Shown here one piece after another: positions 9,275-52,970 of a stretch of DNA of 64,000 nucleotides. Position numbers and translations under genes: made by a program. The notes under the pieces were generated by a model, which saw nothing but the letters and a program-made list of their open reading frames with translations, was not told where the DNA came from and searched no databases. Source of the DNA: Maricaulis sp. (GTDB lineage: Bacteria > Pseudomonadota > Alphaproteobacteria > Caulobacterales > Maricaulaceae); assembly GCF_039978735.1 (NCBI RefSeq), contig NZ_JBDWAS010000058.1, positions 525-64,524 of the forward strand, read 5' to 3'. How positions within the stretch are numbered: the first letter of the stretch is position 1; the number at the start of each line of letters is the position of its first letter.

Positions 9275-9971
9275 TGCACCGTGTCCGGCCGGGCTTCCTT
9301 CAAACGGTGCCAGGCCTGATTCCGCCAGGCGGTCCGCGACGAAAGCGGGAGAGGGACGCTCCTGCGGCCTTGCGGCGGCCATGCAAGATCAGCGGACCAA
9401 TTCCGGGGCCCGCAGACAGTTAGCCGATAGGGGGGCGAGCCTGCCGCGAGGCAAGGGCTCGCGTAGTGGTGATGCCCGGATCCACCGGATCCGGCGTGTG
9501 GGCCAGTGCTGTTCCGGCCGCCATCTGCGGTGCGGATCGTCACTTCCTTCGGAGGCATCTCCGTGGGGCAAGTATCTATATACAAATTTACTTAAGTATT
9601 TGTTTTCAAATAATAATTTGACTCCAGGGTGCTGTGCGTGCATGCTACCCAAAGTTTCGCAACGGGCAGATGAAGGCTAGCCGGACGGATGCATTCGTCC
9701 TGTGTCATCAGCGGCTGAGGTCGCGAACTTCATCTGCATGAATTGCTCCGGAGCGTGTGTCCGGAGCTGGCCGTATCGCTCGTGCCGTGAGGTGCGTGCG
9801 ATCGTGAGAGGCAGGTCTGCCTCTCCTCCTGCACCTCGTGCCGGGCGCGCCCCTCTGCGCCCGGCGCCTTTCCCGGGCCCGGAAGGCGCGGTGCCGGATC
9901 TGTTCAAGCGTTCAGTGAAATCAATCGTCAGACGGGCCCGCGCTGACCGCGTCTCAAATGGAGGAAATACA

Positions 9972-16322: not shown

Positions 16323-17582
16323 TCAGACCCCGATCACCAGACTGACACTGGCGGTCGTCGATCCGCCGACATTATAGGTCGCCGCTGTGCGGGCGCCCTC
16401 GACCTGGCAGTCCCCCGCCCGGCCCGAGGTCTGGCGGGCTGCATCCAGTGCCATGCGCACGCCGGTCGCGCCGACGGGATGGCCAAGGCCGATCAGACCG
16501 CCCGACGGGTTGAAGGGAAGCTTGCCGCCGGGCGCGATGACGCCGTCCTCGACCGGTTTCCAGGCCTCGCCCGGAGCGGACAGGCCGAAATGCTCGATCG
16601 CCATGTATTCGGTGACCGAGAAACAGTCATGGGTTTCAACAAGGTCGAGATCGTCGGGCCCCGACAGGCCTGCCCGGGCGTAGGCATCGGTGATCGCCTT
16701 GCGCACCCAGGGGAAGATATAGCCGTCGGTGCCGGCGCTCTCCGCCAGCTTTGACTCAAGCAGAAGCGGCGCCGTGGTGTGGCCCCAGCCTTTCAGTCGC
16801 GGAATGTCTTCCAGATCGAGGCCGCGGGCGTCGGCATACTCCCGGGCCACCTCTTCTGAGGCGAGGAAGATCACGGCCGCACCGTCGGTGACCTGGCCGC
16901 AATCGCTCTTGCGCATCCAGCCCTCGATCACCGGATTGGCTTCATCGTCCTGGGCAAAGCTGCGCTCGGTAAACTCCCAGTTCCGCGTCTGGGCGTTCGG
17001 ATTGCGGCGGCCGTTGGCGAAGTTGATCTTCGAGATCTCCGCGAGGTGTTCCGGGTTCAGCCCGTAGCGGCGGTCGTACTCAGCAGCGAGATTGGAGAAC
17101 ATGGCCGGCCAGAGGTAGCGGGCGCCGATGGCCTCGCGTCCGGCCCAGGCCGCGGCGCCAAGATTCTCCGCTGCGGTCTGGCCGGGCACATTGCGCATCA
17201 TCTCGACGCCGATGACGCCAGCCAGTCCATAGCGGCCGGCCTCGATATCCGCCATGGCCGCCAGGATCGCCATGGAGCCGGAAGCGCAGGCGGCTTCGTG
17301 CCGGCTGGTGGGCAGGCCGGCGAAGGCGGGATTGGCGTGGACGGCCATGCCGCCCAGCAGACCCTGGCCGCAGAAGAGTTCCGCCGCGAAATTGCCGACA
17401 TGGAGCACTTCGACATCGCCGGCATCGATCCGCGCATCCTCGAGCGCGGCCTCGGTCGTCTCGGCGATCATGTCGAACAGGCCCTTGTTCTCGCGCGTCC
17501 AGTTGCGCGCGAAATCGCTCTGGGCGCCGCCGAGAATGAAGACGGGCGGGGCGCTGGTCCGGGCGGTCGATCGATAGGTCAT
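16323..17582 (-). CDS. thiolase-like protein (SCP-x / lipid-transfer-type thiolase)
   Basis: The track ORF extends to 17618 (GTG). The ATG at 17582 (MTYRSTART) has AAGGGGA upstream. Motifs: EAACASGSMAIL, NPSGGLIGLGHPVGATGVRM. Confidence 0.85.
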   Translation of the reverse strand: MTYRSTARTSAPPVFILGGAQSDFARNWTRENKGLFDMIAETTEAALEDARIDAGDVEVLHVGNFAAELFCGQGLLGGMAVHANPAFAGLPTSRHEAACASGSMAILAAMADIEAGRYGLAGVIGVEMMRNVPGQTAAENLGAAAWAGREAIGARYLWPAMFSNLAAEYDRRYGLNPEHLAEISKINFANGRRNPNAQTRNWEFTERSFAQDDEANPVIEGWMRKSDCGQVTDGAAVIFLASEEVAREYADARGLDLEDIPRLKGWGHTTAPLLLESKLAESAGTDGYIFPWVRKAITDAYARAGLSGPDDLDLVETHDCFSVTEYMAIEHFGLSAPGEAWKPVEDGVIAPGGKLPFNPSGGLIGLGHPVGATGVRMALDAARQTSGRAGDCQVEGARTAATYNVGGSTTASVSLVIGV

Positions 17583-17666
17583 GGCGTCCCCTTTTCGGTG
17601 TTCTGCGGCTCTGGGCACTCCGGCCGTCAGGCGATGATGGTCTGGTCGGGCAATCTGACAATGAAT

Positions 17667-17998
17667 TAACTTGCGTAGTCAAACCCACTTTATCGATGCT
17701 ATGGTCGTGGAGCAAGTGGAGAGCTGCGGGCACGGTGCTTGTGGTCTGTGCAAGTCAGTTTGCGGTCGCGATAAAGCCCAGACTGTGTGGCCTGTTGCAG
17801 CATCTGTGCAGGGCCATCCGGGGTTTGAATTCGCAAGTCCGTTCCGGGGCGCGGGACGTTCAGCGTGCACGGTCAGACAGCCGATTTTCTGGTTTCAGTG
17901 CGCAAGTGCACAAATGCCGAATAATGGCGGCAAGTCCCTTATATATCGCGATTTATCGCCCGGTTCGAAGAATCCGTACTAACTTGCATTGACGAACC
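17667..17998. promoter_or_regulatory. cluster of 5-6 copies of the ACTTGC(A/G)..AAACC motif in the thiolase/TBDR divergent intergenic region
   Basis: 17667-17685(+) TAACTTGCGTAGTCAAACC. 17739-17757(-) TGACTTGCACAGACCACAA. 17822-17840(-) GGACTTGCGAATTCAAACC. 17891-17909(-) GCACTTGCGCACTGAAACC. 17919-17937(-) GGACTTGCCGCCATTATTC (weak). 17980-17998(+) TAACTTGCATTGACGAACC. Confidence 0.5.
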
Positions 17999-18090
17999 TA
18001 GCTCGCTGCGTGTAGCGTTCCTTCCGGTGTGACCCTCAAACCAATAGCGCTGGCAAGGCAGCTTCGGGTGCACCGAAGGGGAGGAATACC

Positions 18091-20406
18091 GTGAATAAGT
18101 TCAAACAAATGACGGCACTGGCTCTGATACTCGGCATGACCGGGACAGCCGGTGCTCATGCCCAGAATGCCGAGCCGGAAGAGACCGGATCGGGCCCGCA
18201 GCTCGACGTGATCGAGATCACGGCGCAACGCCGTGCGGCAAGCGTCCAGGATTCCGCCATCGCTGTTTCGGCGATCAGCGGGGAAAACCTCGAAAAAGAC
18301 CGGATCCTCAGCTTCGAGGATCTGGCAGGCAGCGTGACATCGCTGTCCTTCACCGCACTGTCGCCGCTGGACCAGGAATTCAACGTCCGCGGCATCACCA
18401 ATACCCGTCTCGACTCACCGTCGGCAGACCAGTCGATCGGCATCTTCCTGGACGATGTCTATGTGGGCCGGTCGGGGTTGTTCAATGCCGACATGTACGA
18501 CATTGAACGGGTCGAGGTCGTGCGCGGCCCCCAGGGCGTGCTTCTGGGACGCAATGTGGTCGGCGGTGCCATCAGCATCGTGACCGCCAGCCCGGAATTC
18601 GAGACCAGCGGTGCGCTGTCGGTGTCCCTGGGCAATTACAATGAAACGCTCGTGCGGGGCCATGTGACCGGTCCGATCAACGAGGTGCTTGCAGGCCGGA
18701 TTTCCTTCTCGTCCCGCGATCGGGGCGGCTTCAATCACGACCTGCTGCATGACCGCGAGCTGGACGATCTGCGCTCCTTGCAGGCCCGGGCTCAGCTGCT
18801 GTTCCAGCCGATTGACGGAAATGTGTCGGCTCGCCTGGTCATCGACTATATGGACGACGAGTCGAACGGCTTCCATTCCGTGGCAATCGACGGCCCCGAT
18901 CCAGCGACGCAGGGCCCGTGGAGCGCCATGCGCGAGCTGATCGGTACCGCCCGCGGCCGGCCGCTCGATATCCGCGAGAGCTTCCCGGAACACCCGATCT
19001 ATGCGGGTGACACGGTGGAGTCCCCGCAGGCGCTGCGGCGTGAAGCCTGGGGTGTCTCGCTCGACATCGACCGGGATATCGGCGACTTCGCCACCCTGAC
19101 CAGCATCACCGGCTATCGCCAGGGTCACGCCTACAATCTCTATGACCAGACCGGCATGGGGCCGAACAGCGGCTATGGCATTGTTTCGCCGCTTCTGTTC
19201 CGCTTTCCGGTCAATGAGCGCGAAGAGATCAGCCAGTTCACCCAGGAATTCCGGCTTGTCTCCGATCTTGGCGACAGCAATTTCGACTGGATCGTCGGCG
19301 CCTACTACCAGCACGACGAAGTCGAGAAGTTCGACCGGTTCTGGGCGGAAGTTCCCTTCCCGGCGCTGGCAACCCTGTCCGGTGAATCGCACTGGGACAA
19401 CTTCGCGGAAACCACCTCTGCTGCCGTCTTCGGTCAGCTGGGCTACCAGTTCACCGAGAACTTCCGGGTCGTGGCGGGTATCCGCTACACGCGGGATGAA
19501 AAGTCCGGCACCGTGTTCGCGCGGGCTGTGGAAGGTGGCGACGCCTTCAACCCGACCGACCAGGTGGCCCTGACGCCGCTCGCCGGCACCTATGTGGAAG
19601 GCGATACCTTCTCGGCGAACTACGGCATGGAATGGGAAGAAGTGACGCCGCAGGTGACGGCGGAATACGAGCCCAATGACAATGCCCTGTTCTATCTGAC
19701 CTGGTCGCGCGGCTATAAGGGCGGCGGGTTCGAAGACGACCCGGCCAACCCGGCGGCCGCCCAGGCCGGCTATGATCCGGAGACGGTCGAGAATATCGAG
19801 TTCGGCGCCAAGCTGGACTTCTTCGACCGGCGGGCCCGGCTCAACGTTGCTGCCTTCATGATGGATTATCAGGACCTGCAGGTGACGCAGACCGATGATG
19901 GTTGCCTGTGCAACATCACCGACAATGCGGCCGATGCCGAGATCATGGGTATCGAGGCCGAGTTCCAGTTTGCCGCCACCGACCGCCTGATGATGTGGGC
20001 GGGCGCCACGGTGCTGGAAACCGAATATGTCGACTTCGTCGACAGCAACGGTCTCGACACGTCCGGCAACACGCTTCAGCGCACGCCGGAGACCCAGTTC
20101 AATGTCGGTGCCGAGCTGACGCTCGATGTCGGCACCTGGCGGGACGCGCTCTCCATCCGTGGCAATTACAGCTATCAGGGCGAGATGTTCTGGGCACCGG
20201 ACAACGCCCAGACGGAAGACGCATACGGCCTGCTCGATGGGCGTGTCACCCTGACGCCGCCGGATCGGGACTGGACCGTCTCGGTGTGGGGCAAGAATCT
20301 GACCGACGAGATCTATCGCACCAATATCATCGCCTTCTTCGGCGATGAGGTGTCCCGCCTGGGCGCGCCGCGCACTTACGGGATCGAGCTCTCGACGACC
20401 TTCTAG
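18091..20406 (+). CDS. TonB-dependent receptor
   Basis: 771 aa. GTG start after GGGGAGGAA. Signal peptide ends AGAHAQNAE. Plug: LDVIEITAQRRAASVQDSAIAVSAI and VEVVRGPQGVLLGRNVVGGAISI. C-terminal YGIELSTTF. Confidence 0.9.
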   Translation: MNKFKQMTALALILGMTGTAGAHAQNAEPEETGSGPQLDVIEITAQRRAASVQDSAIAVSAISGENLEKDRILSFEDLAGSVTSLSFTALSPLDQEFNVRGITNTRLDSPSADQSIGIFLDDVYVGRSGLFNADMYDIERVEVVRGPQGVLLGRNVVGGAISIVTASPEFETSGALSVSLGNYNETLVRGHVTGPINEVLAGRISFSSRDRGGFNHDLLHDRELDDLRSLQARAQLLFQPIDGNVSARLVIDYMDDESNGFHSVAIDGPDPATQGPWSAMRELIGTARGRPLDIRESFPEHPIYAGDTVESPQALRREAWGVSLDIDRDIGDFATLTSITGYRQGHAYNLYDQTGMGPNSGYGIVSPLLFRFPVNEREEISQFTQEFRLVSDLGDSNFDWIVGAYYQHDEVEKFDRFWAEVPFPALATLSGESHWDNFAETTSAAVFGQLGYQFTENFRVVAGIRYTRDEKSGTVFARAVEGGDAFNPTDQVALTPLAGTYVEGDTFSANYGMEWEEVTPQVTAEYEPNDNALFYLTWSRGYKGGGFEDDPANPAAAQAGYDPETVENIEFGAKLDFFDRRARLNVAAFMMDYQDLQVTQTDDGCLCNITDNAADAEIMGIEAEFQFAATDRLMMWAGATVLETEYVDFVDSNGLDTSGNTLQRTPETQFNVGAELTLDVGTWRDALSIRGNYSYQGEMFWAPDNAQTEDAYGLLDGRVTLTPPDRDWTVSVWGKNLTDEIYRTNIIAFFGDEVSRLGAPRTYGIELSTTF

Positions 20407-20415
20407 ACATGCAAA

Positions 20416-20441
20416 AGCCCCGGCGCCATGGCGCCGGGGCT
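20416..20441 (-). terminator. hairpin with T-run on the minus strand; terminator for the minus-strand SDR operon
   Basis: AGCCCCGGCGCC-AT-GGCGCCGGGGCT, a 12-bp perfect stem. On the minus strand it is followed by TTTTGC. Confidence 0.6.
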
Positions 20442-20453
20442 GCACTCCCGCCT

Positions 20454-20489
20454 GAGCCGGCCGTCAATGACGGGCCGGCTCTCTTTTTT
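20454..20489 (+). terminator. rho-independent terminator of the TBDR gene
   Basis: GAGCCGGCC-(10-nt loop)-GGCCGGCTC followed by TCTTTTTT. Confidence 0.75.
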
Positions 20490-20496
20490 GGGCGTC

Positions 20497-21240
20497 TCAG
20501 GTCTTCGGGGCCATCCGGTCGGCCATCGACTTGGCGAGACCGTAGGGGTCGCGGGCCAGATGCGCGCGCACGGCGATGGAATGCGGATCGGTGTCGTGCT
20601 CGGCGACGGCGTTTGCGATGGCCCAGAGACCGGCCTTGCCGATATCGCGCGGCTGGGACTTCTTCACCTTCACATGCGCGGCCATCCGGGTGTCGACCGA
20701 GCCGACGATCAGGGCCGTCACGCCGACGCCCAGCGGCGCCAATTCGGCGCGCAGGCAGTCCGATGCTGCTCGGGCTGCAAACTTGGACGGGCTGTAGCCG
20801 CCCATGTCCGGAACGGCGACGATACCGCCGGCCGACAGCACGTTGATGATGCCGCCGCCCCCGTTCGCGGCGATAACCGGCGCGAAGGCCCGGCTCATCG
20901 ACAGGACGCCGAAATAATTGACTTCCATCTCGCGCCGGGCCGCATCGGGGTCGTCAGTGCCATAGAGGCGCTGCATCTCGAACGCGCCGGCATTGTTGAC
21001 CACAAGCGTGACGTCCCGCGCCTTTTGCGCGGCGGCCGCGACCTGCTCGGGCCGGGTCACGTCCAGCTCGACGGGTACAATCCGCGACGGATCCGTTTTT
21101 GCGACGTCTTCAGCATCGGCCAGCTTGCGCGCGCCGACATAGACGCGTGCCGCGCCATGGTCGAGCAGCTCTTCGACAAAGCCGAGGCCGATGCCGCGGT
21201 TGCCGCCGGTAACGATCGCTGTGCAGCCTTCGATCTTCAT
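20497..21240 (-). CDS. SDR-family oxidoreductase
   Basis: The track ORF extends to 21342. The ATG at 21240 (MKIEGCTAIVTGGNRGIGLGF) lies 1 nt after the upstream stop. TGxxxGxG and YSPSKFAARA (YxxxK) are present. Confidence 0.85.
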   Translation of the reverse strand: MKIEGCTAIVTGGNRGIGLGFVEELLDHGAARVYVGARKLADAEDVAKTDPSRIVPVELDVTRPEQVAAAAQKARDVTLVVNNAGAFEMQRLYGTDDPDAARREMEVNYFGVLSMSRAFAPVIAANGGGGIINVLSAGGIVAVPDMGGYSPSKFAARAASDCLRAELAPLGVGVTALIVGSVDTRMAAHVKVKKSQPRDIGKAGLWAIANAVAEHDTDPHSIAVRAHLARDPYGLAKSMADRMAPKT

Positions 21241-21241
21241 G

Positions 21242-21802
21242 TCAGCTCCAGTCCTGGCTGTAGAGAATGTCGTCGGGTTTCTTGGCGCCGCGCACGAGAG
21301 CCGCCGGATCCGGCGCGATCGCACCGCGGCCCCAGCTCTCATGCAGCGGCATTTCGTGGTTCCACTCCCAGGCGAGGCGGCGATGGGCGATTGCCCAGCG
21401 GCCGTCGCGGCGCTCGAAGCGGTCGATCACGCGCGCCATGGTGAGGCTGTCGAACGGATCGTCGACGCCGGTATCGCGGCGGGAGAAGGTCATGATGTAG
21501 CACTCGGTCAGGGCGCGATCGCCGTCCAGCTCGATCATGATGTTGGTAACGGCGTGGGTCATGCGCGGCGCTTTGGGCAGGACCTTGCGCATCGTGGCCA
21601 CATACTCCGAAGCCGGGCCCTTGAACGTGCCGCCATGGTCCTCGATGGCGTCGTCGTGATAGGCGGCCGCAATCAGATCGGCATCGCCCCTATCAGCGCC
21701 GCGGCAATAGCTGACAAGGACCTCGTAGATCGCCTGTTTGTCGAGGAGCGCGCGGAGCTCGCTCATCATCGCAGCGTCGGCATTTGCGGGAGTGTCGGTC
21801 AT
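21242..21802 (-). CDS. NTF2-fold protein, SnoaL_4 / ring-hydroxylating-dioxygenase-beta-like
   Basis: 186 aa. LRALLDKQAIYEVLVSYCRGADRGDADLIAAAYHDDAIEDHGGTF. Clear paralog of 32096..32635. Confidence 0.8.
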   Translation of the reverse strand: MTDTPANADAAMMSELRALLDKQAIYEVLVSYCRGADRGDADLIAAAYHDDAIEDHGGTFKGPASEYVATMRKVLPKAPRMTHAVTNIMIELDGDRALTECYIMTFSRRDTGVDDPFDSLTMARVIDRFERRDGRWAIAHRRLAWEWNHEMPLHESWGRGAIAPDPAALVRGAKKPDDILYSQDWS

Positions 21803-22263
21803 GTCGGATTCCTCGTCTGGCTGGCCGGCGCAAGCGCGGCCGGTCGCGCGGTCAGCGCGGCTGTGAAATCGGGCAAGGGTGTGCCTGCGGCGCTGCGATC
21901 GGCGGAGCCGCGGTCGAAATAGTCGCGCCAGCCGGTGATCAGATCGCCGTCAAATTCGAGAATGCCCATATAGGGAACGACCGCGTGATGACCGTCTGCC
22001 GTGTCGAACTCATCGACGCCTTCAACGAACAGGGCGTCCTCGGTCTCGGCGATCCTGAAGATGCGCCAGCGCGGATTGCGAACCTTCGCCTTGTAGGCCT
22101 CCAGGAATTCCCGGGCTCCGGTCTTGCCGTGCTTTGGGGGCAGCGAGATCGCGGAATAGTGCCAGACCAGGTCATCACTGAGATGGGCCAGCACGGCGTC
22201 GATATCCTGATCGCGACACCAGACATTGATGATGGACTGGAGAATCTCGGTCTTGCGGCTCAT
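21799..22263 (-). CDS. limonene-1,2-epoxide-hydrolase-fold (LEH-like, NTF2 superfamily) protein
   Basis: 154 aa. LFVEGVDEF and ILEFDGDLITGWRDYFD, motifs shared with 26767..27255 and 27313..27741. 4-nt overlaps with both neighbouring genes. Confidence 0.75.
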   Translation of the reverse strand: MSRKTEILQSIINVWCRDQDIDAVLAHLSDDLVWHYSAISLPPKHGKTGAREFLEAYKAKVRNPRWRIFRIAETEDALFVEGVDEFDTADGHHAVVPYMGILEFDGDLITGWRDYFDRGSADRSAAGTPLPDFTAALTARPAALAPASQTRNPT

Positions 22264-23333
22264 TTACGGCCTCCTCCGGCAGCGCCCGGTGCCTGCCAGG
22301 CCAGGGTGAGTGGTGTCTGTGAAACGCCGGGTTCTGCGTCAACCGCGTGGCGAAGCGTGTTGAGGACGGCACCGGCAACGCCGAGCATTTCCGGCGTGGT
22401 GCGTTCGGTCCAGCCGTCCGGCGGTTCCAGGCCGAAGCTCAGCGCAACACTGGGCGTGCCCTCGACCCGGATCGACCACAGGCCCGGCTCGGCCTCGGCC
22501 GGGTCCGGCGGCTCCATGGTCCAGGACACACCGAGTTCGACGCGCACGGCGTCATCGGCCTCCGCCTGCCACAGCCAGTCAATGCGGGCCGCACGTCCAG
22601 GTTCGATCCGCCCCGCGGCGATTTCGAGGGCTTCGCGGGCCGGCCGCAGGCTGTGTCCCTTGACGACGCGGTCAGCGGTCCAGCCCAGCCGTTCTGCTAC
22701 ACAGGCGGTCACTTCCTCGAACAGGGCGTTCATCATGCCGGCGGGTGCCCAGTCCGGGGAATTGGGGTCGACGGTGTCGACCTCGGCGCCGAAGCCGATC
22801 ACGTCGAAGACGTATTCCGGGCTCTTGACGGCGCGGCAGTCGACAATCTCGTGAATGGAGACGCGTTTGACATCGCTGCAGACACCGGTTGCCAGGACAG
22901 CCAGTTTTTCCGCGGCAAAACCGGGATTGAGACCGGCGCCCATGAAGGTGGCATTGCCGTCCCGTCCCGCCGCTTCGAACGCGTCCCGGCGGGCCTTGGG
23001 CCAATAGTCGGGATTGGTGCCGCCATTGATGCTGACGACATTCTTGCCGGAACGCAGCAGGCGCTGGATGTCTTCGTCATGGCGCTCGAAAGGTGGATCC
23101 AGCCGGGCGGCATGGATCACCACATCGGCGTCCAGTTTCAGGATGTCCTCGATATCGCGGGTTGCCGCGACGCCCACCGGGGCCCGGCGCGCGATATCGC
23201 CCGCATCGCGGCCGGCCTTGCGCTCGCCATAGACATAAAGTCCGACAAGTTCGGTCTGGGGGCTGTCGATCACCGCCTGCAGGCAGGTCCGTCCCATGGC
23301 GCCCGTCGCCCACTGGATCACGCGAAGGGTCAT
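22260..23333 (-). CDS. DapB-like NAD(P)-dependent oxidoreductase (dihydrodipicolinate-reductase / amine-dehydrogenase-like family)
   Basis: The track ORF extends to 23846. The ATG at 23333 overlaps the upstream stop (ATGA). MTLRVIQWATGAMGRTCLQAVIDSPQTELVGLYVY is a Rossmann N-terminus. Confidence 0.7.
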   Translation of the reverse strand: MTLRVIQWATGAMGRTCLQAVIDSPQTELVGLYVYGERKAGRDAGDIARRAPVGVAATRDIEDILKLDADVVIHAARLDPPFERHDEDIQRLLRSGKNVVSINGGTNPDYWPKARRDAFEAAGRDGNATFMGAGLNPGFAAEKLAVLATGVCSDVKRVSIHEIVDCRAVKSPEYVFDVIGFGAEVDTVDPNSPDWAPAGMMNALFEEVTACVAERLGWTADRVVKGHSLRPAREALEIAAGRIEPGRAARIDWLWQAEADDAVRVELGVSWTMEPPDPAEAEPGLWSIRVEGTPSVALSFGLEPPDGWTERTTPEMLGVAGAVLNTLRHAVDAEPGVSQTPLTLAWQAPGAAGGGRK

Positions 23334-24259
23334 GTGCCGGTCTCCGAATTGTGGCGCGCCATGGTCTTGTAGAGGTCGGCGAAGGCCGGTTCCGCACCGG
23401 GGAAACCGCGTGCGGTTTCCAGGCCGGACTGGGTCTCGGCAAAGGCGTCGAACGCGTCGAGCGCCTGTGGCATCGGCCCGCCTTCGGTCTCGACGATCCT
23501 GACCTTGCGCAGCCAGCCAGCCCCGCCAAGCCAGATCTCGCCCGTGCGGGTGAGGGCCGGCGAGACCAGCCAGGCCGCTGCGGGGGCGATATGCTCGGGC
23601 AGAAGCCGCGGGTCGATCTCGTCCGGCCGGCTCACATCCGCCGTCATCTGGGTGGCCGCATAGGGGCACAGCACGTTCACAAGAATGCCCGGCTTGCGCC
23701 ATTCGTCGGCCAGGGTCAGCGCGAAGGCATTCATGGCGCCCTTGGAGGCGGCATAGGCCGCCCGGCCGCGCACGCCATAGAGCCCGGCCGAGGACGAGAT
23801 CATCAGCACGCGCGCAGCAGACGACGCCTCGAGGGCCGGTTGGCATGCGGCGAGGATGTCAGCCGTGGCAAAGAGGTTGGTGTCCATCACAGCGCGGATC
23901 GTCGCCGGACCCTCGGGCGAGAACCTGGCGGCCGGTCCGGTGATGCCCGCATTGCAGACGATGATGTCCAGCTGCCCGAACGCATCGAGCGCCGCCTTGG
24001 CGAGGCGTTCGCCGGCCTGGGGATCGGTGATGTCGGAGTGTTCGGCGACGGCCTCGCCGCCGGCATCGCGGATCTCCGCTGCGACGGCTGCGGCTTCGTC
24101 GGCGCGGCCCGGCTTGAGGCGGTTGTTGACGACGATGCGGGCGCCCTGGCGGGCGAGCTCGCGGGCGAATGCCGCCCCCAGCCCCTTGCCGGCGCCGGTG
24201 ACGATTGCGACCCGGCCTTCCAGCGGCCGTTGGGAGGGATTTGAAGCTTGCATAAACAA
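23330..24259 (-). CDS. SDR-family oxidoreductase with ~60-aa C-terminal extension
   Basis: 309 aa. RVAIVTGAGKGLGAAFAREL and YAASKGAMNAF. The start is TTG 24259 or ATG 24253. Confidence 0.85.
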   Translation of the reverse strand: MFMQASNPSQRPLEGRVAIVTGAGKGLGAAFARELARQGARIVVNNRLKPGRADEAAAVAAEIRDAGGEAVAEHSDITDPQAGERLAKAALDAFGQLDIIVCNAGITGPAARFSPEGPATIRAVMDTNLFATADILAACQPALEASSAARVLMISSSAGLYGVRGRAAYAASKGAMNAFALTLADEWRKPGILVNVLCPYAATQMTADVSRPDEIDPRLLPEHIAPAAAWLVSPALTRTGEIWLGGAGWLRKVRIVETEGGPMPQALDAFDAFAETQSGLETARGFPGAEPAFADLYKTMARHNSETGT

Positions 24260-24291
24260 ACTATAAAACGATGGTTTTATAGTGCAAGCCA
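24244..24291. promoter_or_regulatory. head-to-head pair of the island motif enclosing a 9+4+9 palindrome
   Basis: 24244-24262(+) AAGCTTGCATAAACAAACT faces 24273-24291(-) TGGCTTGCACTATAAAACC. The inner perfect palindrome is CTATAAAAC-GATG-GTTTTATAG (24261-24282). Confidence 0.55.
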
Positions 24292-24316
24292 GTTTCGGCG
24301 CGGCGACCGATTTTGG

Positions 24317-25282
24317 TCAGGCGCTGCCGGTGATGTCCGGGGCGCGGCCCGGGCCCTCGGCGATCTCGAAAGTCACCTCTTCCGGCGCCACAGGCTCGCG
24401 GCAGTGCGAGCAGACGACGACCGGGGTCAGTTCATGGCCGCAGGGCTTGTGCGTCAGCAGCAGCGGCGGGCCCTCCGGAGAGACGTAATAGGTGTCGCCC
24501 CATTGCAGCAGCATCAGCAGGATCGGGTAGTAGTCGATCGCCTTTTCCGTCAGCCGGTACTCATAGCGGTTGGGCCGCGTGGAATAGGGGTGCATCTCCA
24601 GCATGCCGATCTGGCAGAGCCAGTTGAGGCGCTCGGACAGGATATTGGTGGCGATCGCGGTGTCTTCGCAGATTTCGTCGAACTTGCGCAGGCCGGTGAA
24701 GATCGACCGCAGGACCAGGCTTGCCCAGCGGTCGCCGGTGATCTGGGCGACATGGTCCAGCAGGATGGAGGCGGCCTCGCGGTTCGTCGCCGTGTCGCGG
24801 TGGCGGCGCCGGCGCGAATAGGTCGGTGTCATCCAGCCCAGGCCCGGGCCTTCACTCCAGGCCATCTCGCGCGCATGGATCTCGCCGCCGCAATCGCCGC
24901 ACGCGGGTACGGGCTCGAACTCGTGGCCGCAGCCTGTGTGGCGCAGGGTGATCGAGATCTTGCCCTCGCTGGGGCCCCAACGGCGCTCCCAGCGCAGCAT
25001 CATCAGTGCGGTCCAGTAAAGCCCGCGGCCCTTCTCGGTCAGCCGGTACTCGAACCGTTTGGGCGAGGTGCTGTAGGGGGTCTTTTCCAGTACGCCGGCC
25101 GCCATGAGGCGCTTCAGGCGGTCGGACAGGAGCGGCTTGAGCAGGCCGGTCCGGTTGCGCAGCTCCTCGAACCGGCGCGCGCCGAGCCAGTTTGCTTCCA
25201 GGATCAGCAGGATCGAGGTGTCGCCGACGACTTCGAGGGCGCGCCAGATCGAGCAGGTACGAATGAATTTGCGGTCGGACAT
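24317..25282 (-). CDS. tandem (duplicated) HxlR-type winged-helix regulator, with a Cys/His knuckle after each domain
   Basis: 321 aa. Domain 1: CSIWRALEVVGDTSILLILEANWLGARRFEELRNRTGLLKPLLSDRLKRLMAAGVLEKTPY..FEYRLTEKG, then HTGCGHEFEPVPACGDCGG. Domain 2: VAQITGDRWASLVLRSIFTGLRKFDEICEDTAIATNILSERLNWLCQIGMLEMHPY..YEYRLTEKA, then HKPCGHELTPVVVCSHCRE. Confidence 0.85.
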   Translation of the reverse strand: MSDRKFIRTCSIWRALEVVGDTSILLILEANWLGARRFEELRNRTGLLKPLLSDRLKRLMAAGVLEKTPYSTSPKRFEYRLTEKGRGLYWTALMMLRWERRWGPSEGKISITLRHTGCGHEFEPVPACGDCGGEIHAREMAWSEGPGLGWMTPTYSRRRRHRDTATNREAASILLDHVAQITGDRWASLVLRSIFTGLRKFDEICEDTAIATNILSERLNWLCQIGMLEMHPYSTRPNRYEYRLTEKAIDYYPILLMLLQWGDTYYVSPEGPPLLLTHKPCGHELTPVVVCSHCREPVAPEEVTFEIAEGPGRAPDITGSA

Positions 25283-25390
25283 GTCGTGAGGCGCGATGGG
25301 TTCCTGTTGATCTGATGCGGAGCCCGAATCCGCGCTCCGCTTGCGCAGTGATACCTGTTAAGCGCCATGGCCCGTCATCGCAAGGCTGCC

Positions 25391-25417
25391 GGCCGGTCTG
25401 CGACAATCAGACCGGCC
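25391..25417 (-). terminator. GC-rich hairpin downstream of the MFS gene (no U-tract)
   Basis: GGCCGGTCTG-CGACAAT-CAGACCGGCC, a perfect 10-bp stem 10 nt beyond the MFS stop codon. Confidence 0.35.
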
Positions 25418-25426
25418 GCACAGGCC

Positions 25427-26770
25427 TCAGACGTCGACCTCCCGCCGGGCATAGCCGGCCGACAGGAAGAAGAGGCCGGTGGCAATCGCAAAGCCGATTG
25501 GCGACACGATCGCGATGGCGTAACGCACCCCCTCGTCGAACGGGAAGAAGGTGTCGCCCACCAGCGCGGTGGCGGTCGGTCCGGCGCCCAGCCCGACCAG
25601 GTTCACCACGAAGAGGTAGATCGCCGACAGGGTGGCCCGCATCCGGTTGGGTGTGAGCTGCTGAAGCGCGCTCGCGGCGGCGCCGATGGGCACGGCTGCT
25701 GCCGAGAAGAAGACCACGAAGGCAACGGCCGACAGCGCGGGCGATCCGGCGAGCGGGAAGATCACGGCAAACACGGTCCCCGCAAGGCCCGCAAAGCCGC
25801 AGAAGGCAAGGCGCCCCGCTGCCGTCCCGCCGCCGAAACGGTCTGTCGCCCAGCCGCCGCCCACCAGGCCGATCAGTCCGCCGATGATCAGCGCGCCGCC
25901 GGCGAGGTGGCCGGCTGACGCCAGGTCCATGCCGTGCACGCGGATCAGGAAGACCGGGAACCAGGAGACCGCGGCGAACACGGCGAAATTGACCATGCCG
26001 ACCGCGAAGCACAGGCCCAGAACGGCACCCGCGCGTTTGCGGATAAAGCTCATCACCTCGCGCATCGGCACCGCTTCGCGCACAGTCCCGGCGGCGACGC
26101 CGTGACGGGGCGGCTCGGGCAGGATCATGAACAGGCCCGCAATCAGCAGGCCGGGCATCCCGACGATGATGAAGGTTGCCTGCCAGGCGCTGAGTTCGCC
26201 GAACAGGGGCAGGGAAATCGACCCCGCATTGGCAACCATCTCGATCACGACGGCGCCGATCAGGAAGGCCAGGCCCGCGCCGACGGCCGACCCCAGACCG
26301 TAAACGCCCATGGCAAGGCCGAGGCGTTTCTGCGGAAAGGAATCCGAGATGATCGAATAGGCGGCCGGCGACAGGGTCGCTTCGCCGACGCCCACGCCCA
26401 TGCGTGCCAGGAAGAGCTGCCAGTAGTGTACGGCCAGACCGCAGGACGCGGTCATCACGCTCCACAGCGCCACACCGGCAGCAACGATGGGCAGGCGCGT
26501 CGAGCGGTCGATCAGCCGGCCCAGCGGCAGGCCCATCACGGTGTAGAAGATCGCAAAGGCGAAACCCTGCAGCAGGCTGACCTGCGTGTCCGTCAGGTCG
26601 AGGTCGGCCTTGAGGGGCTCGACCAGAAGACCGATGATCATCCGGTCGATGAAGGAGAAGATGTAGGCGATGAAGAGAACGGCCACCATCGCCCAGGCCA
26701 CGGCCGGCGCGGGGTAACCGTCCTCGCTGGCGGCGGCCCCGCCCGGGCCGCCGGCCGTTGCGTCACTCAC
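25427..26770 (-). CDS. MFS transporter
   Basis: 447 aa and strongly hydrophobic throughout. MFS motif-A-like GLPLGRLIDRSTR. Overlaps the upstream secreted LEH-like gene by 4 nt. Confidence 0.85.
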   Translation of the reverse strand: MSDATAGGPGGAAASEDGYPAPAVAWAMVAVLFIAYIFSFIDRMIIGLLVEPLKADLDLTDTQVSLLQGFAFAIFYTVMGLPLGRLIDRSTRLPIVAAGVALWSVMTASCGLAVHYWQLFLARMGVGVGEATLSPAAYSIISDSFPQKRLGLAMGVYGLGSAVGAGLAFLIGAVVIEMVANAGSISLPLFGELSAWQATFIIVGMPGLLIAGLFMILPEPPRHGVAAGTVREAVPMREVMSFIRKRAGAVLGLCFAVGMVNFAVFAAVSWFPVFLIRVHGMDLASAGHLAGGALIIGGLIGLVGGGWATDRFGGGTAAGRLAFCGFAGLAGTVFAVIFPLAGSPALSAVAFVVFFSAAAVPIGAAASALQQLTPNRMRATLSAIYLFVVNLVGLGAGPTATALVGDTFFPFDEGVRYAIAIVSPIGFAIATGLFFLSAGYARREVDV

Positions 26771-27255
26771 CGGGCTTCTGCGTCGAAGTCGGTGTGAATG
26801 CCCATGGCTTCGAGAAGCTCGGCGCGGTCATAATATTCCCGCCACTCCTGGATGGAGCCGTCATCATTGATCTCGATGACGCCGACCACCGGTACGGCGC
26901 CCGCATGACCGTTATAGACGAACTCGTCGACCCGCTCGATGAAGACGACGTCGCCGACCTGGCCGATATTCCGGACATTCAGCGTGATCTCCTCGATGCC
27001 GGCGCCGATATGGCCGATGCGGGCTGCGAGGGCTTCATGGCCCACGATCGGGTCGACCATCATCGAATGCAGCGAACCGTCCTCGGCAAACATCGAGACG
27101 ACGCGGTCCCAGTCCTGCGTGTTCCAGGCATCGACCATGTCCAGAACGACCTGGACCTTCGGATTGTCAGAGGTCTGCTGCGTGCCGGTGTCGGCAAGCG
27201 CGGCCCCGGCAGGCATAGCTACGCTCAGCGCGAGAGCGACGACAAGATTACGCAT
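26767..27255 (-). CDS. Sec-exported LEH-fold (NTF2 superfamily) protein
   Basis: 162 aa. Signal peptide MRNLVVALALSVAMPAGAALA|DTG. VFIERVDEF and IEINDDGSIQEWREYYD. GGGAGGAATTC lies before the ATG. Confidence 0.8.
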   Translation of the reverse strand: MRNLVVALALSVAMPAGAALADTGTQQTSDNPKVQVVLDMVDAWNTQDWDRVVSMFAEDGSLHSMMVDPIVGHEALAARIGHIGAGIEEITLNVRNIGQVGDVVFIERVDEFVYNGHAGAVPVVGVIEINDDGSIQEWREYYDRAELLEAMGIHTDFDAEAR

Positions 27256-27269
27256 GAATTCCTCCCATA

Positions 27270-27288
27270 GGTTTTATTGTGCAAGTCA
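27270..27288 (-). promoter_or_regulatory. island motif copy 14 nt upstream of the secreted LEH-like gene
   Basis: The minus strand reads TGACTTGCACAATAAAACC, then TATGGGAGGAATTC, then the ATG (27255). Confidence 0.55.
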
Positions 27289-27312
27289 TAAGAGCGGGAG
27301 AAATCCGGTGCG

Positions 27313-27741
27313 TCAAGCAGAACCGGATTCGCCAGCCAGCAGAGGCTCGACCCAGGCCGGCACAGGCTCGCCTGCGCGCGCCGCAGCAATCGCGGCGCTG
27401 TCGACATAATCCCGCCAGCGCCAGATGCGGCCGTCGCGGAACTCGAAAACGCCGGCATAGGGGGTGCGGATGCGCACGCCCTCGGCATTCACATAATCAT
27501 CGACGCCCTCGACCATCAGCAGGTCGCCGGTTTCGCTGTGCCGGGTGATCGACCAGGCGATCTCCGTCTGACCAGCACCGAATTTTTCGAGAAAGCGGCG
27601 GATGGCGTCGCGGCCCTCCAGCGGGCGGGAGCCGACATGATAGTGGTAGACAACATCCTCGCAGACAGCGTCCAGCACGGTTTCGATGTCGCCGCGCTTC
27701 CAGGCTTCGATGATGCGATGAACGGTGTCGATATGCGCCAT
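27313..27741 (-). CDS. LEH-fold (NTF2 superfamily) protein, cytoplasmic
   Basis: 142 aa. MAHIDTVHRIIEAWKRGD, LMVEGVDDY, VFEFRDGRIWRWRDYVD. Confidence 0.75.
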   Translation of the reverse strand: MAHIDTVHRIIEAWKRGDIETVLDAVCEDVVYHYHVGSRPLEGRDAIRRFLEKFGAGQTEIAWSITRHSETGDLLMVEGVDDYVNAEGVRIRTPYAGVFEFRDGRIWRWRDYVDSAAIAAARAGEPVPAWVEPLLAGESGSA

Positions 27742-27785
27742 TGCGCCGCCCTTCGGTGAGTTGCGAGCGCAGCCTAGTCATTTCA

Positions 27786-27804
27786 GGTAACGTAATGCAA
27801 GTCA
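27786..27804 (-). promoter_or_regulatory. island motif copy 44 nt upstream of the gene starting at 27741
   Basis: The minus strand reads TGACTTGCATTACGTTACC. Confidence 0.5.
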
Positions 27805-27876
27805 TATCGCGTGGCGGGTTTTCGGGTTGGTCCGTTCATCGATTGACAGTCCCGCGAAGAGCGCTCTAACGTGACA

Positions 27877-27895
27877 TGAATTGCATAATAATACC
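27877..27895 (+). promoter_or_regulatory. island motif copy 11 nt upstream of the acyl-CoA ligase ATG
   Basis: TGAATTGCATAATAATACC, then TGGATGTCGTC, then the ATG (27907). Confidence 0.55.
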
Positions 27896-27906
27896 TGGAT
27901 GTCGTC

Positions 27907-29751
27907 ATGCCCGCAGACTACCGCGCCGTGGAATTCCCGCCGGTTGACCTTGAAATAGACCGCCGTCCCGACGGGACGATCGTGATGACGCCGCGCGAGC
28001 CGCTCGATGTCAGGGATGCTTCCGTCCCGGCGGGTCTGGCGCGTCAGGCGCGGCTGCAGCCGGACAAGGTGCATCTGGCGGCCCGCCCGGCACGGGGCGA
28101 GCCCTGGGTGACGGCGAGCTTTGCCGAGGTGAAGGCGCGGGCAGACGCGCTGACCCGCTTCCTGCTCGACCGGGGCGTCGACCCGGCCAGACCGCTGGTG
28201 ATCGTTTCGGGCAATTCGATCGACCACGCCGTTGTGCGCTATGGCGCGATGGGGGCAGGTGTGCCGGTGTGTCCGGTCAGTGCGAATTATGCCCTGCTGG
28301 GCGCAGCCGGCGGGTTCGAGCGCCTGCGCCACGTGATGGACATGGTCAATCCGGGCTTCGTTTTCGCGGAAACGGCGGCTTATGCCCCCGCAGTCGACGC
28401 GACGGCGCCGGCCGATGCGGTGGTGTTGAGCCGGGCCCCCGACGCTTTCAGGACGCCAGCAAGCGATCTGGCCGACGTGCTGTCCGCACCGGCCGGAGAC
28501 GACATCGAAGACCGGATCGCTGCGCTCGATCCCGATGCGCCGGCGGCCTACATGCTGACGTCCGGCTCGACCGGAAAGCCCAAGGCCGTGATCCACACCC
28601 AGCGCATGATCACCTCCAATCTCTATCAGGGATGGCAGGTGCTCGGCCGCGCTGCCGGCTGGGACGATGTGCTGCTGGAATGGCTGCCCTGGAGCCATGT
28701 CTCCGGCGCCTTTTCCTCGATGGCCGCGGCGATCTTCGGCGGTACTTTCTACATCGACAACGGCAAGCCCTTGCCCGGTCTGTTCGACGAGACGATCGAG
28801 AATCTGCGCGAAGTTCCACTGACCTACTTCACCAATGTGCCCGCTGGCTATGCGATGCTCACCGAGGCGCTGGAGAAGGATGAGGCGCTGCGCAAGACCT
28901 TCTTCGAGAAGCTGCGTCTGATGCTCTATGGCGGAGCGGGTCTGCCGCAGCCCGTCTATGATCGCCTGCAGGCGATCGCCGAGGCGGAGACCGGAAATCG
29001 CGTCTTCATGACGACCGGATACGGCGCCACCGAGACCACATCGGGCTGTATGTCGATCTATTTCCATTCGGAAAAAGTCGGGATCGGTCTGCCGATGCCG
29101 GGGCTTCAGGTAAAGCTTGTCCCGCTGGACGAGACCCGTTTCGAACTGCGCATGAAGGGACCGATGGTGACGCCGGGCTATCTCGGCCGGCCGGACCTGG
29201 AAAGCCAGATCCGCGACGAGGACGGCTTCTACAGGATCGGCGACACAGCCCGCTTTCACGATCCGGCCGACCCCGCCCAGGGCCTCGCCTTTGCCGGCCG
29301 GCTGGCCGAGGAATTCAAGCTCGATACCGGTACATTTGTCAGCGGCGGCGAGCTGCGGGCCGAACTGGTGCGCGTCGGCGCGCCGCTGATCACAGATCTC
29401 GTGCTGTGCGGTGAAAACCGGTCCTACCTGTCCGCCCTGATCTGGCCCAACGCCGGGGCGCTGGCAGCCGAAGCCGGACTGCCGGACATGCCACCCGCCG
29501 ACCTGGTACGCGATCCGCGCGCCCTGGCCGCTATCGAAGCGCGCCTTGCGGCACACAATGCGGCGTGCTCCGGGTCGAGCGAACGCATTCGCCGGTTTGC
29601 CCTGCTGTCAGACCCGCCGAATGCCGAACGCCACGAAGTATCTGACAAGGGAACGATCAATCAGGAGGCGGCCCGGCGTCATCGCGCCGCCGATGTGGAG
29701 CGTCTCTATGCCGACACGCCCGACGCGGGCGTGGTGGAAATCGCACGCTGA
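27907..29751 (+). CDS. AMP-dependent acyl-CoA synthetase/ligase (feruloyl-CoA-synthetase-like long form)
   Basis: 614 aa. AMP-binding motifs YMLTSGSTGKPKAVIHTQR, TTGYGATET, YRIGDTARF and SDKGTINQ. Confidence 0.85.
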   Translation: MPADYRAVEFPPVDLEIDRRPDGTIVMTPREPLDVRDASVPAGLARQARLQPDKVHLAARPARGEPWVTASFAEVKARADALTRFLLDRGVDPARPLVIVSGNSIDHAVVRYGAMGAGVPVCPVSANYALLGAAGGFERLRHVMDMVNPGFVFAETAAYAPAVDATAPADAVVLSRAPDAFRTPASDLADVLSAPAGDDIEDRIAALDPDAPAAYMLTSGSTGKPKAVIHTQRMITSNLYQGWQVLGRAAGWDDVLLEWLPWSHVSGAFSSMAAAIFGGTFYIDNGKPLPGLFDETIENLREVPLTYFTNVPAGYAMLTEALEKDEALRKTFFEKLRLMLYGGAGLPQPVYDRLQAIAEAETGNRVFMTTGYGATETTSGCMSIYFHSEKVGIGLPMPGLQVKLVPLDETRFELRMKGPMVTPGYLGRPDLESQIRDEDGFYRIGDTARFHDPADPAQGLAFAGRLAEEFKLDTGTFVSGGELRAELVRVGAPLITDLVLCGENRSYLSALIWPNAGALAAEAGLPDMPPADLVRDPRALAAIEARLAAHNAACSGSSERIRRFALLSDPPNAERHEVSDKGTINQEAARRHRAADVERLYADTPDAGVVEIAR

Positions 29752-29778
29752 CGACCTGCCTGACCAACGGAGCAAGAC

Positions 29779-30585
29779 ATGCCTGAATTTGTGTTTGTGA
29801 TCGGCGTCAACTTCGCCGTCCTGATCGGTACCATGCTGGCCCTCTGGCTGATCAGCGTTGCCATTGGCGATGTCAGCTTCATCGACTCCTTCTGGGCGGC
29901 GGGCTTTGTGCTCGTGGCCTTTGTGACCCATTTCCTCACCCCTGACGGCGACGCCCAGCGCAAGCTCCTGCTGCTGGCGATCACGACGGTGTGGGGGCTG
30001 CGCCTGGCCGGCTACCTGCTCTGGCGCTGGCGCAAGGAAGGGCCGGACAAGCGCTATGTCGCTCTGCTCGGCAAGGCCAAGGGCAATCCGCACATGACCA
30101 GTCTGACGAAGGTCTTCCTGCTGCAGGGTGTCCTCTTGTGGATCGTCTCGCTGCCGGTGCAGCTGGGCCAGGTGCCGGCGCAGCCGGCCGGCGTCAGCTG
30201 GCTGGCCTGGGCAGGCGCCGCGCTGGCGATCATAGGCATCTTCTTCGAGACCGTCGGCGACTGGCAGATGGCGCGGTTCAAGGGCAATCCGGACAATGCC
30301 GGCAAGGTCATGGACCAGGGCCTGTGGCGCTATACGCGGCATCCCAACTATTTCGGCGATGCCTGTGTCTGGTGGGGCCTGTTCCTGATCGCGGCGGAGA
30401 CGACGCTGGGCCTGTTCGCGATCGTCGGCCCGATGCTGCTCACCTTCCTGCTCGTCCAGTGGAGCGGTGCCGCCCTCCTGGAGCGCCGTCTCAAGCGGTC
30501 GCGGCCCGAATACGAGGCCTATATCCGCCGCACCAGTTCCTTCATTCCGATGCCGCCGCGCCGCGATAGCGGCGAAACGGCCTGA
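29779..30585 (+). CDS. DUF1295-family membrane protein (steroid-5-alpha-reductase / ICMT-like fold)
   Basis: 268 aa with multiple TM segments. WRYTRHPNYFGDACVWWGLFLIA motif. Confidence 0.75.
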   Translation: MPEFVFVIGVNFAVLIGTMLALWLISVAIGDVSFIDSFWAAGFVLVAFVTHFLTPDGDAQRKLLLLAITTVWGLRLAGYLLWRWRKEGPDKRYVALLGKAKGNPHMTSLTKVFLLQGVLLWIVSLPVQLGQVPAQPAGVSWLAWAGAALAIIGIFFETVGDWQMARFKGNPDNAGKVMDQGLWRYTRHPNYFGDACVWWGLFLIAAETTLGLFAIVGPMLLTFLLVQWSGAALLERRLKRSRPEYEAYIRRTSSFIPMPPRRDSGETA

Positions 30586-30600
30586 TCACAGGAGTCCCCG

Positions 30601-32082: not shown

Positions 32083-32095
32083 ACGGAGATTGGAC

Positions 32096-52905: not shown

Positions 52906-52970
52906 TGACTCACTTGCCTCCCCAACTCGGCAGGTCCACCGCGCCGGAAGTTAGGGCATGCAAGTTAATA

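Follow-up and report, generated by a model that had tools for sequence, protein, structure and literature searches.

Which protein reads the short asymmetric DNA motif that recurs upstream of the genes of a 10-kb island in a Maricaulis genome, and what would its binding do to transcription? The stretch of this genome analysed here, all 64 kb of it, is referred to as the window and has a G+C content of 65%. An earlier note on this DNA had read the motif either as an operator of the island regulator or as an unusual promoter element. The operator reading now has strong comparative support from the conservation of the motif in 77 other loci, the 85% share of non-coding matches, the clustering of sites, the geometry of the half-sites and their co-variation with the regulator. 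The motif is likely to be the operator of a lipid/isoprenoid-breakdown regulon, conserved among many Alphaproteobacteria, that is under the control of HxlR2, as we call the tandem-HxlR protein of 24317-25282, and probably repressed by it.

A conserved motif outside coding DNA

The asymmetric motif of the island is real. Without any prior model, ACTTGC/GCAAGT was found to be the hexamer most enriched between the genes of the window: intergenic DNA amounts to only 3,614 nt and contains 12 of the 19 copies (p = 2.5e-11, hypergeometric test). The 508-nt spacer between the genes for a thiolase and a TonB-dependent receptor (TBDR), at 17583-18090, holds seven ACTTGC copies against about 0.16 expected, all in blocks that are invariant across four Maricaulis genomes and flanked by variable sequence. 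A matrix trained on distant loci, with the window and loci L001-L007 left out to avoid circularity, gave eight matches of at least 14 bits in the window against 0.05 expected from shuffles. Seven of these are in intergenic regions of the island: 17666-17684, 17979-17997, 24243-24261 and 27876-27894 on the plus strand, and 24274-24292, 27271-27289 and 27787-27805 on the minus strand. The strong sites of the window lie only within the island. The sequences, coordinates and start-codon distances (11, 14, 13/19 and 44 nt) reported in the earlier note were all found in the sequence, as was the agreement of its first three copies at 14-17 of 19 positions.

Conservation was assessed in 80 loci with 10-kb flanks from species-representative genomes, located via tandem-HxlR homologues and designated by L numbers. 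The 77 loci not near-identical to the window (1.34 Mb) formed the scan set, of which 19% is non-coding when margins of 30 nt at the genes are included. Since iterative matrix refinement is circular, the key statistics were redone with a matrix built from the ten 19-mers of the earlier note alone. At 14 bits or more this matrix gave 272 matches in the scan set, 231 of them (85%) non-coding, against a mean of 16.4 for column-permuted matrices; at 16 bits or more it gave 213, of which 183 were non-coding, against a mean of 4.1. Of the 77 loci, 71 had a match of at least 14 bits. Once the matrix had been refined, each of the 78 sources had one match or more, and at 20 bits or more there were 301 matches against 0.4. 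Genes were called by third-position G+C content (GC3), which mis-set many starts and called a few low-GC loci poorly, so the matches apparently inside coding sequence were re-examined; most lay within a few bases of mis-called gene ends. The motif is thus not as frequent inside genes as upstream of them, and its sites are kept in the orthologous intergenic regions of relatives across the 77 loci.

Sites were found upstream of the following gene families:

568-aa AMP ligase: 41 of 55
DapB-like: 38 of 52
DUF1295: 30 of 48
SDR309: 29 of 59
thiolase: 24 of 38
secreted LEH: 15 of 21
TBDR: 14 of 26
RPE65: 14 of 34
614-aa ligase: 13 of 40
the regulator itself (HxlR2): 19 of 90

Their density is highest in the 3 kb or so around HxlR2 and falls off towards 10 kb on either side, and HxlR2 is the sole conserved regulator family among the loci. 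The pair of gene and motif occurs in Caulobacterales, Sphingomonadales, Kordiimonas, Niveispirillum and two betaproteobacterial (Comamonadaceae/Hydrogenophaga) metagenome-assembled genomes (MAGs).

The regulator, an RPE65 dioxygenase, a secreted LEH-like gene and the motif are found together in the Hydrogenophaga MAG (L073), the Comamonadaceae MAG (L078) and Niveispirillum (L059). This suggests that a unit of regulator, operator and targets moves horizontally, with possible binning errors in the MAGs as a caveat.

Anatomy of the motif

With position 2 set to the first base of the 19-mer of the earlier note, the profile of 347 non-redundant sites reads T2 n A4 C5 T6 T7 G8 C9 A10 T11 A12 A13 n n A16 T17 A18 C19 T20 n A22. 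The family consensus is a 21-bp site, T-n-ACTTGCATAA-nn-ATAC(T/C)-n-A; the flanks of these sites show no conservation from -44 to 0 and only traces beyond +24.

This arrangement can be set beside the DNA of the Bacillus subtilis HxlR co-crystal, CAGTATCCTCGAGGATACTG (PMC7835342), and the HypR box, GTATCAAAATTGATAC (PMC3351151). The 3' half of the motif, (G/A)ATAC(T/C), is in its GATACT form the half-site of both, at the same spacing, and the 5' half, ACTTGC, falls exactly where HxlR operators have GTATCC. Half-sites of the GTATC/GATAC type some 10-11 bp apart within a site of about 20 bp are thus found here in the 3' half and the spacing, and the 5' half has diverged. The motif thus appears to be an HxlR-type operator with one half re-specified. 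The earlier note had called it non-palindromic, which holds for the inner positions; the outer ones alone (T2/A22, A4/T20 and T6/A18) retain a degenerate dyad with canonical HxlR spacing, one half of which has diverged.

Two variations on the single site were noted. Head-to-tail pairs offset by 18 bp, whose two sites overlap by four bases that end the one and begin the other, occur in L007, L010 and L011 (5' of TBDR) and in L023 (5' of DUF1295), for example GTCACTTGCATTGAAGAACCTACTTGCATAAGAATACTCG, and suggest two regulator molecules bound side by side. Loci of the Phenylobacterium/Caulobacter type (e.g. L013-L016, at about 8100-8140) show extra conservation at positions 22-31, ACTnTGCnAG, and in front of their 568-aa AMP ligase these positions read CTATGCAAG, an inverted copy of the CTTGC half. 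This block could be either a -10 region or a further half-site.

The tandem regulator and its co-variation with the motif

HxlR2 matches Pfam PF01638 in two stretches (9.5e-33), and its halves are 38% identical to each other (E = 4e-30). The AlphaFold2 (AF2) model is of good overall confidence, with a pLDDT of 84 and a pTM of 0.82. There are 2,176 homologues at E <= 1e-10, many of them more than 60% identical, and the island protein itself is 98% identical to its counterpart in M. virginensis. Its relatives in the PDB are PA1374, PA1607, HypR, YodB, HxlR and QsrR (7bzg, 4a5n, 5hs7 and 4hqe among the Foldseek and phmmer matches). PA1374 and PA1607 (4gcv and 2f2e) are the best match of each half, with E = 2e-20 and 1e-17 for the C-terminal half and 9e-13 and 6e-13 for the N-terminal half; HypR, YodB and HxlR come next. 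The recognition helices of the two modules differ, GLLKPLLSDRLKRL versus AIATNILSERLNWL, and each is conserved family-wide. A search of NCBIfam with HxlR2 gave no model at the curated cut-off, only RrpB and RrpA far below threshold, and no paper on tandem or double HxlR proteins or on an HxlR regulon in these genera was found in the searchable literature.

Each module is followed by an H-x2-C...C-x2-C cluster, at residues 115-131 and 278-294, in which H115, C118, C128, C131, H278, C291 and C294 are invariant and C281 varies. These clusters may serve in metal binding or in the sensing of redox state or electrophiles. Cys10 (RTCSIW) in helix alpha1 shows almost no variation and lines up with the alpha1 cysteine of PA1607/PA1374; it is present in the N-module only, the C-module being without it. 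HxlR/DUF24 regulators use a conserved, reactive cysteine of this helix for sensing, a role that Cys10 may share.

The C-module helix and the CTTGCAT half are both invariant across clades. Three positions of the N-module helix are variable, and changes there go together with changes in the 3' half of the motif:

N-module LKP: 3' half AAACC, position 17 A 0.70
N-module LKA: 3' half ATACC, position 17 T 0.68
N-module LQT: 3' half ATACT, position 17 T 0.59
N-module LPT: 3' half ATA(C/G)T, position 17 T 0.75
N-module RQS: 3' half GGAGT, position 17 G 0.81

This is the pattern expected if HxlR2 reads the motif with its N-module on the 3' half, and we tentatively assign the variable 3' half to the N-module and the 5' half to the C-module. 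Together, the HxlR-family half-site and spacing, the co-variation of the helix and the co-localisation of gene and motif favour an operator of HxlR2.

A mechanism may be proposed on this basis. HxlR2, a single chain in which two HxlR winged-helix modules have diverged, would act as a covalently fused pseudo-dimer, setting its two non-identical recognition helices into successive major grooves of the 21-bp site. One module would read the invariant ACTTGC(A) and the other the ancestral HxlR/HypR half-site of the (G/A)ATAC type, and the operator would be asymmetric because the two modules differ. Covering the -35, -10 or +1 of the target promoters, the bound protein would repress by occlusion until an effector, perhaps sensed via Cys10 or the His/Cys clusters, releases it. 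The predicted targets are TBDR, the thiolase, the SDR operon, the secreted LEH-MFS operon, SnoaL and the CoA ligase and, weakly, the gene of the regulator. Direct binding, the assignment of modules to halves, the sign of regulation and the effector are all matters that we infer from sequence comparison.

Sites and candidate promoters in the window

The copies of the motif in and around the island are as follows:

17667-17687, plus strand: strong site TAACTTGCGTAGTCAAACCCA, 25.8 bits, between the divergent thiolase and TBDR genes, unchanged across four Maricaulis genomes
17712-17717 and 17930-17935: bare ACTTGC in the region of weak copies
17738-17908, minus strand: cluster of weak or partial copies (17738-17756, 17821-17839 and 17890-17908), at most 6.3 bits with the family matrix
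17980-18000, plus strand: strong site TAACTTGCATTGACGAACCTA, 23.3 bits, 93 nt 5' of the TBDR GTG
24244-24264, plus strand: strong site AAGCTTGCATAAACAAACTAT, 28.6 bits, the best of the window and absent from the list of the earlier note
24271-24291, minus strand: strong site TGGCTTGCACTATAAAACCAT, 22.2 bits, 5' of the SDR/DapB-like/SnoaL operon
25337-25357, plus strand: weak site CCGCTTGCGCAGTGATACCTG, 8.3 bits, 55 nt 5' of the HxlR2 ATG in the orientation opposite to the gene
27268-27288, minus strand: strong site TGACTTGCACAATAAAACCTA, 25.0 bits, 14 nt before the secreted-LEH ATG
27784-27804, minus strand: site TGACTTGCATTACGTTACCTG, 18.3 bits, 44 nt before the SnoaL/LEH ATG at 27741, kept in L001-L003
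27877-27897, plus strand: strong site TGAATTGCATAATAATACCTG, 23.9 bits, 11 nt before the CoA-ligase ATG
52949-52967, minus strand: outlier copy, 8.9 bits, 5' of a TPR-GGDEF-EAL gene

The site at 17667-17687 faces TBDR; 84 nt separate it from the thiolase ATG, and a TTGTCA-N16-CATCAT match for the thiolase begins 5 nt from it. That at 17980-18000 holds an internal TTGACG, a possible -35, and a near-identical site stands 5' of the TBDR orthologues of Marinicauda, Oceanicaulis, other Maricaulis and Sphingomonas colocasiae. Five or six copies had been reported to crowd this divergent region, of which only these two fit the family-wide model; GCACTTGCGCACTGAAACC reaches only 6.3 bits and GGACTTGCGAATTCAAACC less than 6. 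Each weak copy of 17738-17908 lies within a block conserved across the four Maricaulis genomes, and the cluster may consist of low-affinity or half sites facing the thiolase.

The site at 24244-24264 covers the SDR start codons (ATG 24253, TTG 24259) and converges with that at 24271-24291. The two form a tail-to-tail strong pair at 24243-24292, 12 bp apart, between the stop codon of the regulator and the SDR operon; convergent pairs occur at the same place, 3' of the regulator gene, in L004-L006. The copy previously described upstream of the HxlR gene is present and, in this genome, weak. It has the same place and orientation in L001-L003, a comparable copy is found in L005 and, by eye, in L006, and Phenylobacterium and Caulobacter have a co-directional site about 55-75 nt 5' of HxlR2; an autoregulatory role is possible. 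At the AMP-ligase orthologues of L004-L007 and L010-L012, (A/G)ATTGCATAA... sites occupy the same place as in the window. The outlier before the EAL gene is indistinguishable from chance, as 1.45 matches of at least 8 bits are expected per shuffled window, and it is probably not a member of the set.

Candidate promoters could be placed at several of these sites, among them:

27288-27316, minus strand: candidate promoter of sigma-70 type for the secreted LEH, with TTGACG (27316-27311), 17-nt spacer, TCTTAT (27293-27288), consensus-based
27843-27870, plus strand: putative promoter of the 614-aa CoA ligase, TTGACA, 16-nt spacer, TCTAAC, ending 6 nt before the motif

In the former, the last T of TCTTAT is the first T of the motif (T2), so that the site would span about -8 to +13; CTTGAC(G/C) lies at the same distance from the motif in nine lineages (L004, L005, L006, L007, L010, L011, L012, L064 and the window). 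In relatives, the candidate of the CoA ligase carries CATAGT or TATAGG ending 6-8 nt before the motif, which would place the motif at about +1 to +21, and the arrangement ACAG...(C/T)ATAG(T/G) is seen in L005, L006, L010 and L011 and similarly in L012. The putative promoter of the SDR operon, CTGACC-N18-GAAACT, ends on the first T of the site 24271-24291. In Phenylobacterium, DUF1295 and thiolase genes have CTTGCG or TTGGCC 16-17 nt 5' of a motif centre reading CATAGA/TATAAT. The varying register over -35 and -10 argues that the motif overlaps promoters and is not a fixed promoter element.

Other promoter assignments were tried and set aside. The exclusion of a sigma-70 pair in the earlier note was correct, since the blocks are about 10 bp apart, against 16-18 bp between the hexamers of such a pair, and no partner stands at a fixed distance in 347 sites, and so was that of sigma-54 (TGGCAC-N5-TTGC), as TTGC is present and positions -4/-3 show no preference for G; the spacing and the flat profile outside positions 2-24 rule out both. 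An RpoH- or ECF-like -35 (CTTG, nACTT) would leave little information where the -10 is expected and would put the most conserved bases into the spacer. CTTGCA as a -35 is possible for some Phenylobacterium promoters (DapB-like, SDR309) and impossible in Maricaulis, where starts lie 11-19 nt after the motif.

Weighing of the explanations

Several observations count against HxlR2 as the repressor that reads these sites. All loci were sampled through the regulator gene, and the co-occurrence is partly by construction. Phylogeny, with about five clades, confounds the co-variation, as does the selection of sites with a single matrix. The promoter hexamers are guesses from consensus; a scan for E. 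coli-type promoters and terminators found almost nothing and is uninformative on start sites. In unidirectional arrays the sites are co-directional with the downstream gene in 160 cases versus 21, which a plain steric repressor does not require, and the family members HxlR and HypR of B. subtilis are activators (PMC7835342, PMC3351151). The orientation count could reflect an oriented contact with RNA polymerase, that is activation, or about a dozen orthologous promoter families counted repeatedly.

The last two points lend themselves to a model in which HxlR2 binds the same sites as an activator, always in one orientation and beside or across weak promoters, where it recruits or remodels RNA polymerase, the asymmetric site giving the promoter its direction. 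The pooled profile without a conserved -35 at a fixed distance fits this too, as does the sharp mode of 35-39 nt in the distance from the motif to start codons backed by a Shine-Dalgarno sequence. However, the register relative to candidate -35/-10 pairs differs among gene families, and in Maricaulis the sites end 11-19 nt before the starts with the Shine-Dalgarno in between, leaving no room for a downstream promoter. Conserved anti-oriented or convergent sites (24243-24261, the one upstream of HxlR and those of L004-L006) and the inflation of the orientation count by orthology speak against it as well, and we consider activation unlikely. One may speculate, with low confidence, that HxlR2 is orientation-dependent at promoters without a conserved -35, that the co-directionality is functional and not merely inherited, and that the pairs of helix and 3' half form a natural re-specification series. 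It is less probable still, and in our view rather improbable, that a different transcription factor, with its gene elsewhere in these genomes, uses the motif as its operator, the tandem-HxlR gene being one more member of the regulon. The sampling was centred on HxlR2, and a plain member would also have a site 5' of its gene; but the half-site and spacing are those of an HxlR-family operator, the asymmetry fits a reader with two different modules, variants of the 3' half follow those of the N-module helix, the loci have no second conserved regulator family, and HxlR2 and the motif travel together into Betaproteobacteria.

Two further explanations dispense with an operator. A promoter for an alternative sigma factor or of unusual architecture, with the A/T-rich part as its -10, would account for co-directional sites near start codons, for a centre resembling CATAAY/TATAAT and for the Phenylobacterium DUF1295 and thiolase genes, in which this centre lies 16-17 nt 3' of a TTG-type hexamer. 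The two conserved blocks are nevertheless too close, at about 10 bp, for a -35/-10 of the sigma-70 family, no GG is conserved 10 nt 5' of GC as for sigma-54, and the most conserved bases (T6, T7, A18 and C19) are off the -10 consensus positions. The sites are also limited to one gene cluster and include conserved anti-oriented copies, and better, conserved -35/-10 candidates lie upstream of the motif in the window, so that the earlier suggestion of the A/T-rich half as a -10 with very short leaders finds no support for the window genes; this explanation is highly improbable. An element acting in the transcript, as part of a 5' untranslated region bound by a protein or small RNA, might be suspected from co-directional sites 11-70 nt before start codons and from candidate transcription starts at or before the motif in two window promoters. 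Yet Rfam gave no match to 9000-30000 at gathering thresholds, the profile, judged by eye with no test of folding or pair counts run, lacks stem potential apart from T2/A22, A4/T20 and T6/A18, conserved copies occur in non-transcribed orientation and 90-400 nt from genes, and the half-site matches a DNA-binding family, which makes such an element the most remote of the candidates. Between a repressor on the one hand and a fixed promoter element or class-II activator on the other, it is the position of the sites over the core promoter at varying registers that favours repression by HxlR2.

The island and its surroundings

The earlier gene map is borne out by Pfam and comprises, in order:

16323-17582, minus strand: thiolase
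18091-20406, plus strand: TBDR, start GTG
20497-21240, minus strand: SDR
21242-22263, minus strand: two SnoaL/LEH genes
22260-23333, minus strand: DapB-like oxidoreductase
23330-24259, minus strand: SDR, head of the SDR/DapB-like/SnoaL operon, candidate starts ATG 24253 and TTG 24259
24317-25282, minus strand: HxlR2, 321-aa tandem-HxlR regulator, two HxlR winged-helix modules each with an H-x2-C...C-x2-C cluster behind
25427-26770, minus strand: MFS transporter
26767-27255, minus strand: secreted LEH-like protein of the LEH-MFS operon
27313-27741, minus strand: SnoaL/LEH, ATG at 27741
27907-29751, plus strand: acyl-CoA synthetase (CoA ligase)
beyond 29751, after the acyl-CoA synthetase: DUF1295, RPE65-type dioxygenase and SnoaL_4

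Regulon genes at 16323-32635 and in the orthologous loci encode a TonB receptor, MFS, an RPE65-type carotenoid/stilbene dioxygenase, LEH/SnoaL proteins and SDRs, together with DUF1295, two acyl-CoA ligases and SCP-x-type thiolases; the DUF1295 protein also has weaker matches to the steroid 5-alpha-reductase and methyltransferase families. These genes point to a pathway that takes up an isoprenoid, apocarotenoid or related lipid and degrades it in a manner resembling beta-oxidation.

A separate small regulatory unit lies 12 kb from the island, where a TetR-family gene (5262-5882) is divergent from a second TBDR gene (6211-9237), and no strong copy of the motif is present in it. A 60-bp A/T-rich stretch at 9560-9620, 3' of this second TBDR gene, contains two degenerate minus-strand motif-like copies, 9572-9590 (17.2 bits) and 9596-9614 (11.2 bits), with no gene start downstream; they may be due to chance in A/T-rich DNA or represent a decayed site.

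If HxlR2 acts as proposed, a likely function and some nine to twelve target gene families can be put forward for the tandem-HxlR proteins, with their more than 2,000 homologues, and the architecture of the reader would explain an asymmetric operator. The system would show, in nature, how a dimeric winged-helix regulator can keep the ancestral half-site for one of its halves and gain a new one for the other. The cluster itself, which includes epoxide-hydrolase-like proteins, would be a conserved, probably inducible system of uptake and degradation in marine and freshwater Alphaproteobacteria, with the operator as a handle for finding the inducer.

Relation to known systems

HxlR2 shares Pfam PF01638 and the fold with the HxlR/DUF24 proteins (B. 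subtilis HxlR, HypR and YodB/CatR, S. aureus QsrR). The predicted operator of HxlR2 resembles theirs in its length of about 20 bp and in the distance of about 10 bp between its half-sites, and its GATACT 3' half is identical to the half-site of the HxlR co-crystal DNA and of the HypR box. Also shared are a conserved cysteine in alpha1 (in HxlR2, that of the N-module) and the location of the regulator gene next to its targets, where it may be autoregulated. Known members, about 100-130 aa long, bind palindromes as homodimers, whereas HxlR2 is one chain of 321 aa with modules 38% identical. One half-site of its operator is changed to ACTTGC, which gives the operator a direction that the HxlR/DUF24 palindromes do not have, and both modules have an added His/Cys cluster at their C-terminal end. 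The predicted HxlR2 regulon is a catabolic or transport gene cluster, in contrast to the detoxification units of one or two genes under HxlR/DUF24. Judged from its sequence features, the HxlR2 system lacks the defining homodimer on a palindrome of that family.

PA1374 and PA1607 of Pseudomonas aeruginosa are uncharacterised single-module HxlR proteins, crystallised as dimers, with a C-terminal extension that is matched in part by the HxlR2 halves; unlike in HxlR2, this extension is without conserved cysteine pairs. SarS (1p4x) and PF0095 (2quf) are, like HxlR2, single chains with two winged-helix modules that mimic a dimer. They belong to unrelated subfamilies, and their whole-length Foldseek matches are very weak (TM 0.17-0.26, root-mean-square deviation 17-23 A). 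A comparable regulon motif, asymmetric and conserved, is not known to us for these proteins.

In its logic HxlR2 is closest to Mce3R of Mycobacterium tuberculosis, a fused double TetR-family repressor with two non-identical helix-turn-helix motifs that is autoregulated and acts on lipid- and sterol-related genes (PMC11667970). Its conserved 25-bp non-palindromic operator was found by comparing orthologous intergenic regions, and binding was shown by electrophoretic mobility shift assay and electron cryomicroscopy (PMC11667970). Mce3R has a TetR fold, belongs to another phylum and has demonstrated binding, whereas HxlR2 is built of winged helices and its binding is predicted; common to both are two non-identical modules in one chain and a conserved non-palindromic motif beside the regulator gene.

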